IMG/VR virus record: IMGVR_UViG_3300027628_000003
Location: 1-64,000 of that record
Strand: one strand, 5' to 3'
Source of the DNA: a virus
Length of the DNA stretch: 64,000 nt
Below are positions 45,087 through 49,910 of this stretch, in pieces; positions within the stretch are counted from its first letter, which is position 1, and every line of letters starts with the position of its first letter. The notes beneath the pieces were generated by a model. The model worked only from the letters and a program-made list of their open reading frames with translations. It was not told where the DNA came from and ran no database searches. Position numbers and translations under genes: made by a program.

Positions 45087-45488
45087 TTATATTGTTGTCT
45101 TGAATGTAGTACTTGGTTGCTTCATTTTAAACTCATCGCACATCGTTCTAGATAGCTTTTTCTCCTTGATAAAGCCCTCTACCATATCCTTGTTGACTAC
45201 TATTTCCTTACACTTGCGAGCAAGGTGGGCAGGTATAGCAGTTAATAGGGAAGGGTCATAAGTAGTATACAGGGCATTCTGCACTACTCTTTCACCCTCT
45301 CTAAGTTCTACTCCACCCCCATTAGTACCTGAAACAGCATACACACTACGTACTATCATCTCATCTTCAATAAGACCACGTAGTCTCTTTAGCTCTTTCT
45401 CTAACTTCTTAGATTCTTCATACACCTTTAAGTATTCATCCACATTTGCCTGCATTTGTTTAGTGATAACACGTTGTTTTACTGCCAT
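45087..45488 (-). CDS. hypothetical protein
   Basis: 133 aa with RBS aaaaggagctggttata. Confidence 0.6.
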   Translation of the reverse strand: MAVKQRVITKQMQANVDEYLKVYEESKKLEKELKRLRGLIEDEMIVRSVYAVSGTNGGGVELREGERVVQNALYTTYDPSLLTAIPAHLARKCKEIVVNKDMVEGFIKEKKLSRTMCDEFKMKQPSTTFKTTI

Positions 45489-45646
45489 TATAACCAGCTC
45501 CTTTTATCTTTGGTATCTTTTGAAGTTAGTTTGCCCGAAGAACGGAATCTCCATCCTTAGCTACTCCGTAGAGTGAACCAACCAACTCAACTTGATGAGT
45601 TCATTTTGAAGGAAACCACACCAGAAGTCAAACAAATGAAAAGGAA

Positions 45647-46399
45647 CTAGGCTGAAGTACCTAGCTCCTTATTGATTTCCGCTATTGTTCTCCCAAGAGG
45701 GGCGTTTATAACTACATCAGCTATATGGTCTAACTGTGTCTCGTCATTATTAATGATTACTAGGCTTCCACCATTCTTCTTAGTGTAGGCAGGTAGAATG
45801 GCTGCTGGAGTTACTTGTAGGGAAGACCCCATTACAATAGTAAGGTCTGCTGATTGCACCGCAGACAAGGACAATGCTAAAGTGTTCTGGGATAACTGCT
45901 CGTTAAATAGAACGATGTTAGGTCTAAGAAGTCCACCACAATGAGGACATCTGATGTTATGCAGGTAATAAGAACTAGGAGTACTCTTTTTACATGCAGA
46001 GCAGAAGCAACTAGCTAAATCACCATGCAACATATGCACAGGAATCTTAGCGGTGTTAACCTGGCTATGATATCCATCAACATTCTGGGTAATAATGTGA
46101 TGTATTAGCCCTTGCTCAGCCCAGTCATTAATACACATATAAGACTCATCAGGCTCATTACTTAACACTTGACCAATTCTCTCTCTATAGTACTCAGTAA
46201 ATTCAAAGGTGCTATCCCACAACCCTCTAGTAGTAGCTAATTCTTGAATACGTCTGTTTTTGTAGAGACCGCTAGAGCTTCTAAAATCTTGTAGCCCGCA
46301 TTCGGTTGAAAGTCCAGCACCAGACAGAACCACCGTCTTTTTGCTCCCCTTTAGCAACTCACTAACCTTCTTGATAGTCTCATTGTATACTGTGTTCAT
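45647..46399 (-). CDS. Sir2-family NAD-dependent deacylase/ADP-ribosyltransferase (sirtuin, CobB-like)
   Basis: 250 aa. Rossmann motif GAGLSTECGLQDFRSSSGLY, catalytic QNVDGYH, and a four-Cys zinc module CFCSAC...CPHCGG. Confidence 0.85.
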   Translation of the reverse strand: MNTVYNETIKKVSELLKGSKKTVVLSGAGLSTECGLQDFRSSSGLYKNRRIQELATTRGLWDSTFEFTEYYRERIGQVLSNEPDESYMCINDWAEQGLIHHIITQNVDGYHSQVNTAKIPVHMLHGDLASCFCSACKKSTPSSYYLHNIRCPHCGGLLRPNIVLFNEQLSQNTLALSLSAVQSADLTIVMGSSLQVTPAAILPAYTKKNGGSLVIINNDETQLDHIADVVINAPLGRTIAEINKELGTSA

Positions 46400-46600
46400 C
46401 TGAACCTCTCCTTTTTCTCGGTTGTCTTTTCTACCAGACTACACCTAATTCTGTTTCTAGCTTCTCACAAGTAGGACACAAGCCATCCTCTACCTCATCA
46501 GGCTGGGTATCACTAAACTTTGGTGAGGTACTATATGGGTGATAACAATTACTACATCTAATTACTGTACACCCCTCTTCTAAAGAAGCAAGAGGGGAGA

Positions 46601-48634
46601 TTACTCCCCCACTGCACCTCTCATAATCTCTTGCTGTTCTTTAAGGATAGGGTCTAACACTCGGCTCTGGTACTCCTCACTTACTTTCTTAGCATTAAAG
46701 GCACCAATACCCAGCTCTCTAGCAAAACGACTTACCTTACAACGTCTACCATTGAAGCCTTGTAGACAAGATACATATACTTCACTTTCGGCTCTTGTAA
46801 TGCCAACATATAATAATCTACGCTCTTCCTCAATAGCTAAAGGCTTACCATCCTCTGCTGCTTCTACTGCTCTAAAGTGAGGTAACACTCCTTCAGACAC
46901 ACCCACACAGAATGCTACAGGGAACTCAAGACCCTTACTCTTATGGATAGTCATTAACTGAACCCCATCAATACTATGTTTAGCTTGGGAAGTCATTAAG
47001 TCAATGTAGTCTAAGAAATCCCCAAGGTCATCATAGCGGTCTAGAACATATTGAAGAGTTGCAATGTTCTCCATACGGCTACTCTCTTCTTCCTCTTCTT
47101 CACCTAAGATATAGTCCTTATATCCAACGTTATCTAGAAGATGATTAACTAAGTCTGTAGGGGTTGCACCCTCTTCTAACATCTCTTGTAGGTCTTTAAT
47201 GATGCCTGCAAACTCTAGAGAGCCTTTAACCTGATAGTTTTGTAGCTTCAGCTTACCAGACAGAATAGCTTCCCAGTGTGAGCCATCAAAAGCACTTACC
47301 TTGTTGTAGAACTCCTTACCTAAGTATCGGCTAGGAACGTTGTATACACGCTTGAATGCCTGGTTATTATCTGGGTTGACTGCTAGTTGCAGGTAAGATA
47401 CAAGGTCTTTAACCTCTTTACGTTCATAGAAAGAGATACCTCCATGAATAACGTATGGTAGACCTGCCATGATTAACTCATCTTCAATAGCACGAGATTG
47501 AGCATTGGTACGGTAAAGTATTGCAATATCCTTGTGGTTTCTGCCCTTCTTCTCTATCTGAATCTTGATATCCTCTACTACTTGTTTAGCTTCCTCTGTC
47601 TCATCCTTGAATACAGATAGAGCTACGCAATCGCTATCATCCTTCTTATGTGCTTTAAGCGTCTTCTTGATACGCTTAGTGTTATGTTTGATAAGGTTGT
47701 TAGCAATCTCTAGAATTGCTGGGTTACTACGATAGTTATCCTCTAATGCAATAGACTGTACTCCACTGAATGAAGAACTAAACTCAATAAATTGTTCTGG
47801 TCTTGCACCACGGAAACCGTACATAGACTGGTCATCGTCACCTACGATAAATAAGTTATTCTCTGGATAAGCAAGCATAGACATTAGTTCATATTGTAAT
47901 GAGTTGCTATCTTGTGCCTCATCCACTAGTATGTATTTGTAGATAGCTTGGTATTTCTGAAGGATATCTGGATGCTCTTTAAATAGCTTCCATGTAAGGT
48001 AAAGCATGTCGTCCCCATCAATCTTATTCTGACTAGTCTTAGCAAGCTCATAGCGTCTGAAGAACTCAATATAGCAGTCCATTCTAGTACCCTTACCTGC
48101 ATTCTCCTCTTCAAAGTCTCGGTAGTCTTTACCTTCATTCTTAGTTAAACCAACTACCTTTAGTAGACCTGGAACTGGCATGTCTCTTAGCTCTTCCTTA
48201 ATACTGAACTCAACAGTTCTATCCATCATGATAGCTTTAATGATACTCTCAGCAAAGTACTTTTGAGAGTTACCCATTAGTACTCCATCCTTCTTCTTAA
48301 ACGCTTGGAATAGGGGATTGCCTAAAGCCTCATATTCCTTCTTTAGAATACGGTAACCAATAGAATGTGTAGTACCAATTGTTAACTGCATAAGCTTCAT
48401 CTGTGGGATTAACTTACTAAGACGCTCTGTCATCTCCTCACTAGCCTTCTTAGTAAATGTTGTTAACATGATATTCTTAGGCTTGATTTTAAGGTCAGTA
48501 ATCATGTGTGCTGTACGGTGTGTTAGGACACGAGTCTTACCTGAACCTGCTACTGCATTTATTTGAATACGACCATCTATTGCTAATACTGCCTGCTCTT
48601 GGCTTGGATTTAACCCATCAATAAATTTACTCAC
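46601..48634 (-). CDS. UvrD/PcrA/Rep-type superfamily-1 DNA helicase
   Basis: 677 aa with a GTG start after aaaaggagagggtatta. Motif I AVAGSGKTRV, motif II LVDEAQDS, plus FIVGDDDQSMYGFRGA, TIHKSKGLEF and LLYVGITRA. Confidence 0.85.
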   Translation of the reverse strand: MSKFIDGLNPSQEQAVLAIDGRIQINAVAGSGKTRVLTHRTAHMITDLKIKPKNIMLTTFTKKASEEMTERLSKLIPQMKLMQLTIGTTHSIGYRILKKEYEALGNPLFQAFKKKDGVLMGNSQKYFAESIIKAIMMDRTVEFSIKEELRDMPVPGLLKVVGLTKNEGKDYRDFEEENAGKGTRMDCYIEFFRRYELAKTSQNKIDGDDMLYLTWKLFKEHPDILQKYQAIYKYILVDEAQDSNSLQYELMSMLAYPENNLFIVGDDDQSMYGFRGARPEQFIEFSSSFSGVQSIALEDNYRSNPAILEIANNLIKHNTKRIKKTLKAHKKDDSDCVALSVFKDETEEAKQVVEDIKIQIEKKGRNHKDIAILYRTNAQSRAIEDELIMAGLPYVIHGGISFYERKEVKDLVSYLQLAVNPDNNQAFKRVYNVPSRYLGKEFYNKVSAFDGSHWEAILSGKLKLQNYQVKGSLEFAGIIKDLQEMLEEGATPTDLVNHLLDNVGYKDYILGEEEEEESSRMENIATLQYVLDRYDDLGDFLDYIDLMTSQAKHSIDGVQLMTIHKSKGLEFPVAFCVGVSEGVLPHFRAVEAAEDGKPLAIEEERRLLYVGITRAESEVYVSCLQGFNGRRCKVSRFARELGIGAFNAKKVSEEYQSRVLDPILKEQQEIMRGAVGE

Positions 48635-48693
48635 TAATACCCTCTCCTTTTAGCTCTGGTCTAGAGGGAGGAAGTTCTCCCTCTCACAAGACC

Positions 48694-48722
48694 ATTTTCT
48701 CACGACTGGAAACAGAAATCAA
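48694..48722 (-). promoter_or_regulatory. early-type promoter P6 in front of the UvrD-Sir2 genes
   Basis: Minus strand reads gaaCGTCC-TTGATT, 17 nt ending TGa, then GAAAAT. The leader contains the hairpin GAGGGAG-N6-CTCCCTC. Confidence 0.5.
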
Positions 48723-49306
48723 GGACGTTCGCTATTGTTACGCTTTATTTTGCATGTTCTAACCCACTCCCTAATGAGATTACGAGGTACTAACACTCTT
48801 GTATTATTGAAGTCCCTACGCATATCACTGTCTAATAAAGCCAGCTCAACCACGTCATGTCTCTTCTCTACTATGTCCCAATTGCTTTGAGGTACCATAG
48901 GTATCACGTTCTCCCCACTAGGAACTTCTACTAGGCACACAACTATTAAGATTTCTCCCTCAAATAACCTCACCCTAGCCATGCTGTCCTGTATGTCTTC
49001 CTCATCCTTACGTATGCGATTTGACAAGCAGTTATTCTTTACACAGTAGTAGCCAATGGGTGCTCCATGTTTTTCCCAGTCCCCATTACCTATTAGACCA
49101 CCTCCACCCCCTACATGGAGATTTCCTAATAGTTCTAGGTACCCTTCAGAGTCAGCAACGTGGTTAGCTCCACATTCAGAGCAGGTAATAAAATCTACTA
49201 CTTCACCCTCTGGTATTTCCTGAATCATCCCACTAGATTTAAGTACCCCTTTTCTAACCTTATTCTGCACCTTCATCCCAACTACTTCCTCTAATGTCTC
49301 TGCCAT
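48719..49306 (-). CDS. hypothetical CxxC/Gly-run protein (paralogue of 49308..49910)
   Basis: 195 aa. Shares E(E/V)V.G...QN..RK.VLKS.G...C.EC......E.Y.EL.GNLHVGG.GG.L.GNGDW...G.P..Y.C.NN.CLS with its neighbour. Confidence 0.6.
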   Translation of the reverse strand: MAETLEEVVGMKVQNKVRKGVLKSSGMIQEIPEGEVVDFITCSECGANHVADSEGYLELLGNLHVGGGGGLIGNGDWEKHGAPIGYYCVKNNCLSNRIRKDEEDIQDSMARVRLFEGEILIVVCLVEVPSGENVIPMVPQSNWDIVEKRHDVVELALLDSDMRRDFNNTRVLVPRNLIREWVRTCKIKRNNSERP

Positions 49307-49307
49307 A

Positions 49308-49910
49308 TTATTCTTCCTCCTTAATCACAGTGTCTGCTATAACCTCTAACTTACCTTGGAACAACCATGTTTGCAGTACTTCTTTCTGAATACCTAACTC
49401 TCTAGGCTTCCTGCCTTCACCCTCCATGTACACATCGGTTCTAATTCTAACCTCATCTTCAACTATGGCTACTACTTCAAGAGCATTATGACTCGTTATA
49501 TAAGTGTCAGAGCCTGTTGCCAGAGGTACTGTTGTATAGAACCTTGACCGCTCATGTATCTCAGGTATCTGGGTTTGTTCCGTTAGTTCCTTTAGCTCTA
49601 TTCTACGGATGTAATCAGAGAGACATTGATTATTTATACAGAAGTAGTATACAGGGACACCAATGTTCCTCCAGTCACCGTTACCTAGAAGACCACCTCC
49701 ACCTTTTCCACCCACATGAAGGTTACCTACCAGCTCTATGTAACTCTCCTGATGGGTAAGGTGTTGACAATTACACTCATTACAATTAACAAACTCCACT
49801 ATCTCATCGTTGTACTGGATAACCTCTAACTCTCCTGTAGATTTAAGTACAGCCTTTCTAGGTTGGTTCTGAAGCCTAATGCCTGTTACCTCTTCTATTG
49901 TGCTCTTCAT
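49308..49910 (-). CDS. hypothetical CxxC/Gly-run protein (paralogue of 48719..49306)
   Basis: 200 aa. See its paralogue. Confidence 0.6.
   Translation of the reverse strand: MKSTIEEVTGIRLQNQPRKAVLKSTGELEVIQYNDEIVEFVNCNECNCQHLTHQESYIELVGNLHVGGKGGGGLLGNGDWRNIGVPVYYFCINNQCLSDYIRRIELKELTEQTQIPEIHERSRFYTTVPLATGSDTYITSHNALEVVAIVEDEVRIRTDVYMEGEGRKPRELGIQKEVLQTWLFQGKLEVIADTVIKEEE

Follow-up and report, generated by a model that had tools for sequence, protein, structure and literature searches.

A housekeeping-type sirtuin gene downstream of a UvrD-like helicase gene in a CP-51-like Bacillus phage

The DNA analysed here comprises the first 64,000 nucleotides of the IMG/VR virus record IMGVR_UViG_3300027628_000003 (hereafter the window). 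On its minus strand, a gene encoding a UvrD/PcrA/Rep-like DNA helicase of superfamily 1A (SF1A) is followed by a gene encoding a canonical sirtuin, i.e. a Sir2-type enzyme dependent on nicotinamide adenine dinucleotide (NAD); both open reading frames (ORFs) are present exactly as delimited in a preliminary description of the sequence (Table 1). A megablast search with positions 45500-48900 matched 7 phage records, all of them Bacillus cereus-group myoviruses of the genus Siminovitchvirus, with nucleotide identities of 93% to CP-51, 86% to Shanette and JL, and 82% to S4-1. On this basis, the window belongs to a CP-51-like lytic Bacillus phage (Herelleviridae, Spounavirinae, Siminovitchvirus). 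The pairing of the two genes is real but does not constitute a new observation, because both are already annotated in public records. In RefSeq CP-51, they are gp140 ('DNA helicase') and gp142 ('Sir2 (NAD-dependent deacetylase)'), separated by gp141, a hypothetical protein of 44 aa; helicase and Sir2 products are likewise annotated in RefSeq JL and Shanette, and the pair also appears in the record of Exiguobacterium phage vB_EalM-132. The window sirtuin is therefore a known kind of object, a housekeeping-type sirtuin carried by a phage, and phage sirtuins are a catalogued family, PHROG 2162 (PMC9503650; PMC5107563). Our literature search retrieved surveys and in-silico work only: it yielded neither a biochemical nor a genetic test of a phage sirtuin, the CP-51 Sir2 included, nor any discussion of the helicase-sirtuin unit. 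The interpretation that we hold with moderate confidence is that helicase and sirtuin form one transcription unit, in which a deacylase of housekeeping type is reached by read-through.

Table 1. Features of the helicase-sirtuin locus and related sites (positions in the window)
Feature	Positions	Strand	Description
UvrD/PcrA/Rep-like SF1A DNA helicase gene	46601..48634	-	677 aa; GTG start; no intein
Canonical sirtuin gene	45647..46399	-	250 aa; Pfam SIR2 (PF02146), 1.4e-34
Small zinc-ribbon ORF	46431..46562	-	CxxC-X22-CxxC; 43 aa if the start is ATT 46562; homologue of CP-51 gp141
Sigma-A-type promoter	48694..48729	-	AACGTCC 48729-48723; -35 TTGATT 48722-48717; TG 48702-48701; -10 GAAAAT 48699-48694
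5' leader hairpin in purine-rich box	48663..48684	-	GAGAGGGAG, loop, CTCCCTCT; 8 bp; -14.4 kcal/mol (fold)
Terminator-like hairpin 1	46588..46615	-	GGGGGAG-UAAU-CUCCCC core enclosing the helicase stop codon, then CUUCUUU; -17.9 kcal/mol, z = -3.1
Hairpin 2	46572..46597	-	CCCCUCUU / AAGAGGGG; -14.1 kcal/mol; starts 6 nt past the helicase stop
Intrinsic terminator	45641..45670	-	12-bp stem containing the sirtuin stop codon, tail UUUCAUUUGUUUG; -18.2 kcal/mol, z = -5.9
Promoter-like site	45603..45631	-	TTGACT-17-CAAAAT; begins the next transcription unit (gene 45087..45488); conserved in four phages
AACGTCC-TTGA promoter sites	28259, 29837, 32355, 33644, 35903, 48729	+, +, -, -, -, -	
Upstream tandem paralogues	48719-49306, 49308-49910	-	195 and 200 aa; PHROG 17533

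We examined the residues of the sirtuin by alignment with its homologues. The NAD loop consists of GAGLS (27-31) and QDFRS (37-41; DFRS 38-41, with F39 and R40), the catalytic motif reads QNVDGYH (105-111, with Q105, N106 and D108), and Cys133, Cys136, Cys151 and Cys154 form the zinc module. All the motifs listed in the preliminary description are thus in place, but the general base is H125 (in LHG), by alignment to H116 of Sir2Tm, and not the His of QNVDGYH. Residues G27, A28, G29, S31, G35, R40, Q105, N106, H125, G126, the four Cys, F165, V196 and P198 are invariant in 55 homologues, at least 90% of which also conserve F39. Matches in the PDB were Sir2Tm (6.7e-38), Sir2Af1 (2.7e-36), Sir2Af2 (6e-34), SIRT5 (1.4e-19) and E. 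coli CobB (4.7e-17). The best NCBIfam model, NF001753 ('NAD-dependent protein deacylase'), gave 235 bits, just under its cut-off of 243, and the protein falls in PHROG 2162 ('Sir2 (NAD-dependent deacetylase)', 1.1e-61). The AlphaFold2 model has a mean predicted local distance difference test score (pLDDT) of 94.7 and a predicted template modelling (TM) score of 0.91, with block means of 96-98 over the zinc module. Its top 27 Foldseek matches were all complexes of Sir2Tm, Sir2Af1 and Sir2Af2 (TM 0.81-0.88), the best ones including peptide- and NAD-bound Sir2Tm and Sir2Af structures, and the next were SIRT6, PfSir2A and SIRT5. The ratio of nonsynonymous to synonymous divergence (dN/dS) of the sirtuin gene is 0.09-0.17, a range as low as that of the helicase gene, which indicates purifying selection.

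A reading of the protein as a defence SIR2 was dropped: a PADLOC scan of the sirtuin matched 0 families, and the neighbours of its gene are the helicase gene, the zinc-ribbon ORF and a gene for a DUF7376 protein. No defence SIR2 occurred among the top 50 Foldseek matches either. With Sir2Tm, Sir2Af1 and Sir2Af2 as nearest PDB relatives, the protein belongs with the canonical sirtuins of deacylase type rather than with the defence SIR2 NADases, as the preliminary description had stated. The same description had also raised an interference with NAD-based immunity. As a counter-defence tool, the sirtuin would consume NAD+, degrade NAD-derived immune signals or serve as a decoy, and two points agree with this, namely the early-type promoter and the known contest of phages and hosts over NAD (PMC13464706; PMC9503650). 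However, the sirtuin is unlike the defence NADases, it is most closely related to housekeeping enzymes whose genes have ordinary chromosomal surroundings, and the CP-51 annotation holds no NAD-salvage, Nudix or macro gene as a partner. The idea thus finds no support in the sequence, and we consider it very unlikely.

The acyl-lysine loops were compared between the window sirtuin and its relatives. F165, V196 and P198 (VxP) are kept, while the FGE loop reads FNE (N166, i.e. G166N) in the CP-51 clade only; FDE occupies this position in one cellular homologue and in the IMG/VR contig L013. In the HMMER alignment, Y71 and R74 fall opposite the Tyr and Arg of the Y-x-x-R motif in Sir2Af1, and both residues also occur in the sirtuins of the Bacillales relatives and of the Exiguobacterium phage. 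A Y-x-x-R pair of this kind defines the acidic-acyl pocket of class III sirtuins (Ringel et al. 2014, cited in PMC5107563). From its sequence, the window sirtuin is most likely an NAD-dependent protein lysine deacylase, every residue needed for this being kept; because Y71-x-x-R74 matches Sir2Af1 and SIRT5, it would probably strip not only acetyl but also the acidic succinyl and malonyl groups from lysines. Its substrates, as suggested by gene context, would most likely be host or phage proteins of DNA metabolism or of the nucleoid. The enzyme might instead act mainly as an ADP-ribosyltransferase on a host or phage protein or on DNA, like SIRT4, SIRT6 or SirTM, or like the HerA-linked phage sirtuins, for which Iyer et al. 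predicted a DNA-directed activity. Sirtuin chemistry allows such a transfer (PMC9503650), the gene stands in a DNA-metabolism context, and zinc-less derivatives occur at the same locus. Nevertheless, the nearest structures are robust deacylases, the YxxR pair and the VxP acyl-lysine tunnel are retained, and neither a SirTM-type macrodomain partner (looked for in the scanned flanking ORFs and in the CP-51 annotation) nor any other ADP-ribose-removing partner adjoins the gene, which makes this activity unlikely as the main one.

The helicase matches Pfam UvrD-helicase (PF00580, 5e-70) and UvrD_C (PF13361, 2e-60). Its translation contains the superfamily 1 motifs AGSGKT, VDEAQD, GDDDQSMY, YRSN, HKSKGLEF and GITRA, which are invariant over six phage helicases, and its dN/dS is 0.05-0.15. 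It belongs to PHROG 1967 (7.6e-174) and stays under the NCBIfam equivalog cut-offs for PcrA (506 vs. 911 bits) and Rep (437 vs. 951 bits). As judged from these scores, the helicase represents a phage-specific branch and not an orthologue of cellular PcrA, UvrD or Rep. PADLOC profiles for Gabija GajB also match it at 2e-100; these matches were dismissed as generic UvrD similarity because no GajA OLD-family nuclease gene adjoins the helicase gene. As a side observation, an insertion of intein size, inferred from length, is present in the L013 orthologue (L013 3630-6860, a 1076-aa ORF), and the one in SPO1 (L003 4284-5108) is annotated.

Upstream of the helicase gene lies a sigma-A-type promoter whose spacer between TTGATT and GAAAAT measures 17 nt and ends in TGa (extended -10); its -35 overlaps the stop codon of the upstream gene (48719-49306). 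The 11-mer AACGTCCTTGA occurs in five exact copies in the window, and a sixth site (32355, minus strand) differs from it at one position and keeps the TGn -10 arrangement. When up to 2 mismatches were allowed, 24 matches were observed, a count reached in 0 of 100 shuffles. At all six sites, (G/A)TGn and a TAtAAT-like hexamer follow 14 nt further on. In the whole CP-51 genome (138.7 kb, pieced together from four loci for this count), AACGTCCTTGA is found six times, five of them in a convergent small-gene cluster (107.8-115.4 kb) and one before the helicase-sirtuin operon. Outside this putative host-takeover cluster, the AACGTCC-TTGA class is represented by the helicase promoter alone. Moreover, promoter and leader are identical in the window, CP-51 and Shanette, whereas the flanking coding sequence diverges, and the leader hairpin, just downstream of the -10, is 100% conserved in sequence in the three phages. 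The AACGTCCTTGA copies in both window and CP-51, the shared layout and the conserved leader confirm that this promoter is of the same class as those of the small-gene cassettes. The preliminary description was right on this class, but its 'early' timing was overstated, as it derives from the sigma-A-like consensus. No terminator was found between the helicase promoter and the genes upstream, and later read-through from these genes is therefore possible too.

A purine-rich box, (A/G)GGAG(C/G)(A/G)GGG, stands about 8-20 nt past the -10 at all six promoters of the class. It may be comparable to a polypurine element described at the 5' end of early SP82 mRNA, where it acts as a stabiliser; SP82 is a relative of SPO1. 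In CP-51, an extra 73-aa gene (gp139; L001 9136-9357) is inserted between the promoter leader and the helicase gene; the window and Shanette do not have it. The products of the two tandem paralogues upstream of the promoter both contain a CxxC motif and a glycine-rich stretch, GNLHVGG(G/K)GG..GNGDW.

The preliminary description was largely right on genes, motifs and promoter, but its statement that no terminator is evident between the two genes does not hold, and the 200-bp gap is not empty. A conserved hairpin (hairpin 1) has the helicase stop codon in its loop, and it is followed by a conserved CxxC-X22-CxxC ORF, homologous to CP-51 gp141, that had been overlooked, so that simple co-transcription with nothing between the genes does not describe the locus. 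The stem of hairpin 1 is about as stable as that of the terminator past the sirtuin gene, and its U-tract is poorer than the tail of that terminator, which contains the sirtuin stop codon and is itself conserved (CP-51, Shanette, L010). Hairpin 1 is kept in every relative examined, including S4-1 and the IMG/VR contigs L011 and L016, where the gap is only 49 nt long and a T-rich stretch follows the hairpin; in the distant relative L013, a hairpin with a T-tract likewise separates helicase and sirtuin. A second hairpin uses the same C-run, the two structures being mutually exclusive, and shows in L010 one compensatory change from C-G to U-A. Scanning of 46400-46800 revealed no sigma-70-like promoter on the minus strand between helicase and sirtuin, and an Rfam search over the whole window gave no match in the 45-49 kb region. 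Because no separate promoter was found for it, the sirtuin gene is probably reached only by read-through.

The small ORF is under purifying selection, with a dN/dS of 0.06-0.32 across five lineages and runs of synonymous changes. A canonical start codon (TTG) is found in only one of the five lineages, CP-51. At the same position Shanette reads CTG, L010 and L181 read TTA, and the window reads GTA; all of these code for Leu or Val, and the position changes as sense codons would. Moreover, the ORF lies in the -1 frame of the helicase gene, this frame is open for 12 codons ahead of the helicase stop in all these sequences (in the window up to about 46640), and GTG GGG GAG TAA at the helicase stop is invariant. 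Together with hairpin 2, these features make a -1 frameshift, by which some helicase molecules would gain the zinc ribbon, a serious possibility; the putative junction peptide would be AVGGVISPLASLEEGCTVIR. Alternatively, translation of the small ORF could begin at non-canonical codons. The ORF is dispensable, since three relatives (S4-1, L011, L016) lack it through a clean indel of about 150 nt. The allele of the window matches that of L010 and not that of CP-51.

From these elements one could imagine a dedicated phage module, in which helicase, zinc-ribbon ORF and sirtuin act together through frameshifting, read-through control and deacylation. A -1 frameshift at GUG GGG GAG UAA, stimulated by hairpin 2, would extend a fraction of the helicase, and translation of the helicase stop region inside hairpin 1 would set the level of read-through to the sirtuin. 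The sirtuin would then deacylate the helicase or host partners (PcrA, RNA polymerase, HBsu, SSB, RecA-type proteins), which would switch DNA repair or replication towards the phage, and the repeated filling of the slot by divergent sirtuins, including zinc-less ones, would reflect selection for the pairing. We regard such a module as improbable.

Then, we investigated the synteny of the pair. The sirtuin gene lies directly downstream of the helicase gene in three lineages, i.e. the CP-51 group, L013 and vB_EalM-132. The helicases of the latter two are 42-67% identical to that of the window: L013 shares 67% identity in the helicase and 38% in the sirtuin, and vB_EalM-132, where the gap is 25 nt, 42% and 29%, respectively. 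In the record of vB_EalM-132, annotated terminators bracket exactly the helicase gene and cobB. The Cys4 zinc module is deleted in the sirtuins of L013 (6927-7574; LHGNLTMYEDEKGILRPN) and L005 (4944-5636; LHGALEFVSDNGKIRPN), two Spounavirinae lineages that are more distant. This module is presumed to be required in canonical sirtuins, and the zinc-less sirtuins of L013 and of the Exiguobacterium phage retain the NAD-binding and catalytic residues and YxxR. In SPO1-like phages, the helicase gene is kept and the slot of the sirtuin is filled by an unrelated 181-aa gene. SPO1 gp34.34 and gp34.35 and phage G gp300 were tried as a degenerate sirtuin or zinc ribbon and rejected, as none of them matches SIR2 and CxxC pairs are missing from gp34.35.

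To place the sirtuin among cellular homologues, we used the best 80 of at least 600 matching stretches from a scan of genome contigs. None of these 80 closest cellular loci carries a UvrD-like helicase gene within 4 kb of the sirtuin gene, in agreement with the earlier remark that a helicase neighbour is unusual for this family. Outside the CP-51 group (84-98% identity), the nearest sirtuins are cellular ones of Bacillales (Marinococcus, Paenibacillus, Salirhabdus, Brevibacillus), with 40-43% identity. The three Bacillales cellular genes that were checked stand in ordinary chromosomal contexts, among unrelated metabolic genes. In our interpretation, the window sirtuin descends from housekeeping Bacillales sirtuins, at about 40% identity. 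No B. cereus-group sequence is present among the best 80 matches, and a recent capture from the host is therefore unlikely. In a neighbour-joining tree, the CP-51 clade has 100% support and a long branch; support of the deeper nodes is 22-49%, which does not separate a single capture from repeated ones.

Synonymous divergence (dS) was compared between positions 45647-48634 of the window and L001, L002, L010 and L094. For the helicase gene, dS to the window is 0.27 for CP-51, 0.36 for L010 and 0.75 for Shanette, and for the sirtuin gene it is 0.19-0.20 for CP-51 and Shanette and 0.85 for L010. These values are discordant: recombination therefore shuffles helicase and sirtuin independently, with breakpoints in or near the intergenic region. 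This exchange is consistent with another explanation, namely that the adjacency is inherited synteny only and that the sirtuin gene is of host housekeeping origin, an auxiliary gene of 'moron' type that was captured and has no functional tie to the helicase. The different gene at the sirtuin position in SPO1-like phages, the small ORF that comes and goes, the terminator-like hairpin that parts the two genes and the generally conserved gene order of Spounavirinae (notes in the vB_EalM-132 record) point the same way. However, the adjacency outlasts a divergence of the sirtuins to 29-38% identity, and no independent sirtuin promoter was found between the genes. In addition, the L013 sirtuin is 52% identical to cellular sirtuins vs. 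38% to the CP-51 type, which would fit repeated capture at one site, a point on which the tree does not decide. We consider synteny alone a possible explanation, if a tentative one.

Under the interpretation that we favour, a sigma-A-type extended -10 promoter would drive a single unit in a lytic CP-51-like phage, in the order UvrD-like helicase, 43-aa zinc-ribbon peptide (in most strains), 250-aa sirtuin and strong terminator. The sirtuin gene, as the distal one, would be reached by read-through of an attenuating hairpin 1, and the sirtuin is thus probably made in smaller amounts than the helicase. Several points weigh against this interpretation. Most transcripts could end at hairpin 1, SPO1-like phages retain the helicase without a sirtuin in the slot, and the independent recombination of helicase and sirtuin alleles, as deduced from dS, argues against a tight protein-protein co-adaptation. 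As for the enzyme, the FGE substrate loop is altered in the CP-51 clade, and two syntenic relatives have lost the zinc module, so that those enzymes may work differently. Furthermore, the literature search yielded no measured activity, substrate or timing for any phage sirtuin, and in E. coli the phages T4 and lambda are restricted by the CobB of the host (PMC4271551), which makes a pro-phage role of a CobB-like enzyme less than self-evident.

Sirtuin genes were also observed at other phage loci. In WH1 and Edson, the sirtuin gene is near those for RecA, SSB, ThyA, DHFR and PcrA, and in KLEB27-3 near those for NrdEF, SSB and RecA; a link of phage sirtuins to DNA-metabolism modules is therefore recurrent in Bacillus. 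Divergent sirtuins (about 30% identity) are found in unrelated large Bacillus phages (L004 1052-2886; L009 4886-6720; L178 3959-8669).

Housekeeping-type sirtuins are carried by lytic phages of several families, and this is a small paradox, since a host sirtuin restricts E. coli phages (PMC4271551). The locus offers a clean system for the study of phage sirtuin function: a minimal 250-aa enzyme with an intact active site, strong purifying selection and a defined promoter, together with natural variants with and without the zinc module or the small ORF, in a group where CP-51, JL and Shanette can be propagated on laboratory strains of B. cereus. If the link with the helicase is functional, lysine acylation would be tied to phage DNA metabolism; if it is not, the sirtuin is one more auxiliary metabolic gene. 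Three aspects deserve attention: the conserved synteny, which is specific to phages, the sirtuin derivatives without a zinc module, and the zinc-ribbon ORF, which lacks a canonical start codon in most lineages and is read in frame -1 relative to the helicase gene.

Elsewhere in the window, a skipping-rope RNA (Rfam RF02924, 65 bits) adjoins tRNA-Trp and tRNA-Met (4674-4761 on the minus strand, 4869-4942, 5323-5397, 5715-5788), and ARAGORN reported an odd tRNA with a two-base anticodon at 5323-5397.

Finally, we compared the locus with known systems. Sir2Tm (class U), Sir2Af1 (class III, desuccinylase) and Sir2Af2 have the same length as the window sirtuin (about 250 aa) and no extra domains, and they share with it the NAD pocket, the catalytic His, the Cys4 zinc ribbon and the VxP tunnel. 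The model of the window sirtuin matches Sir2Tm and Sir2Af structures with TM scores of 0.85-0.88. The window sirtuin differs from these proteins by its sequence (32-35% identity), by FNE in place of FGE, and by being phage-encoded and distal in a helicase operon. The Bacillales housekeeping sirtuins (SrtN/CobB-like) possess the same motifs, including YxxR, but their genes, unlike that of the window, are never next to a UvrD helicase gene among the 80 closest loci. The defence SIR2 NADases (ThsA, DSR1/2, SIR2-HerA, SPARSA) have in common with the window sirtuin the SIR2 superfamily fold and the use of NAD; in contrast to them, it has no sensor or partner domain and possesses a zinc module and an acyl-lysine tunnel. 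As for the helicase, its orthologue in the same syntenic block of SPO1 is gp34.33, with 57% identity; the SPO1 gene has an intein, whereas that of the window has none, and the place downstream that the sirtuin gene has in the window is taken in SPO1 by gp34.34 (181 aa, no Pfam match).

Among phages, a survey of NAD/ADP-ribose systems that covered 21,191 viral proteomes showed that viruses encode sirtuins much more rarely than ADP-ribosyltransferases, with most viral sirtuins in a clade of proteobacterial phages predicted to act in RNA repair (PMC9503650). For this main clade, Iyer et al. predicted a KptA-like removal of RNA 2'-phosphates. The prediction stands in that survey, and the sirtuin gene of Streptomyces phage Comrade is near RNA ligase, polynucleotide kinase (PNK) and tRNA genes. 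However, the clade in question is proteobacterial and only about 25% identical to the window sirtuin, no ligase, PNK, 2H, cREC, Nudix or HAD gene is adjacent to the window gene, and the nearest 'putative ligase' of CP-51 is about 8 kb from the helicase gene; such a role is most improbable for the window sirtuin. The PHROG 2162 sirtuins of T5-like, rV5-like and KVP40-like phages are in the same PHROG as the window sirtuin, but share only about 25% identity with it, and their genes are found in RNA-repair or NAD-salvage contexts and not after a helicase gene (PMC9503650). A study of Vibrio phages, which calls phage sirtuins 'enigmatic', models a zinc-less enzyme with an FNE motif (PMC5107563). 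The KVP40-type sirtuin is without the zinc site, whereas the window sirtuin retains it.

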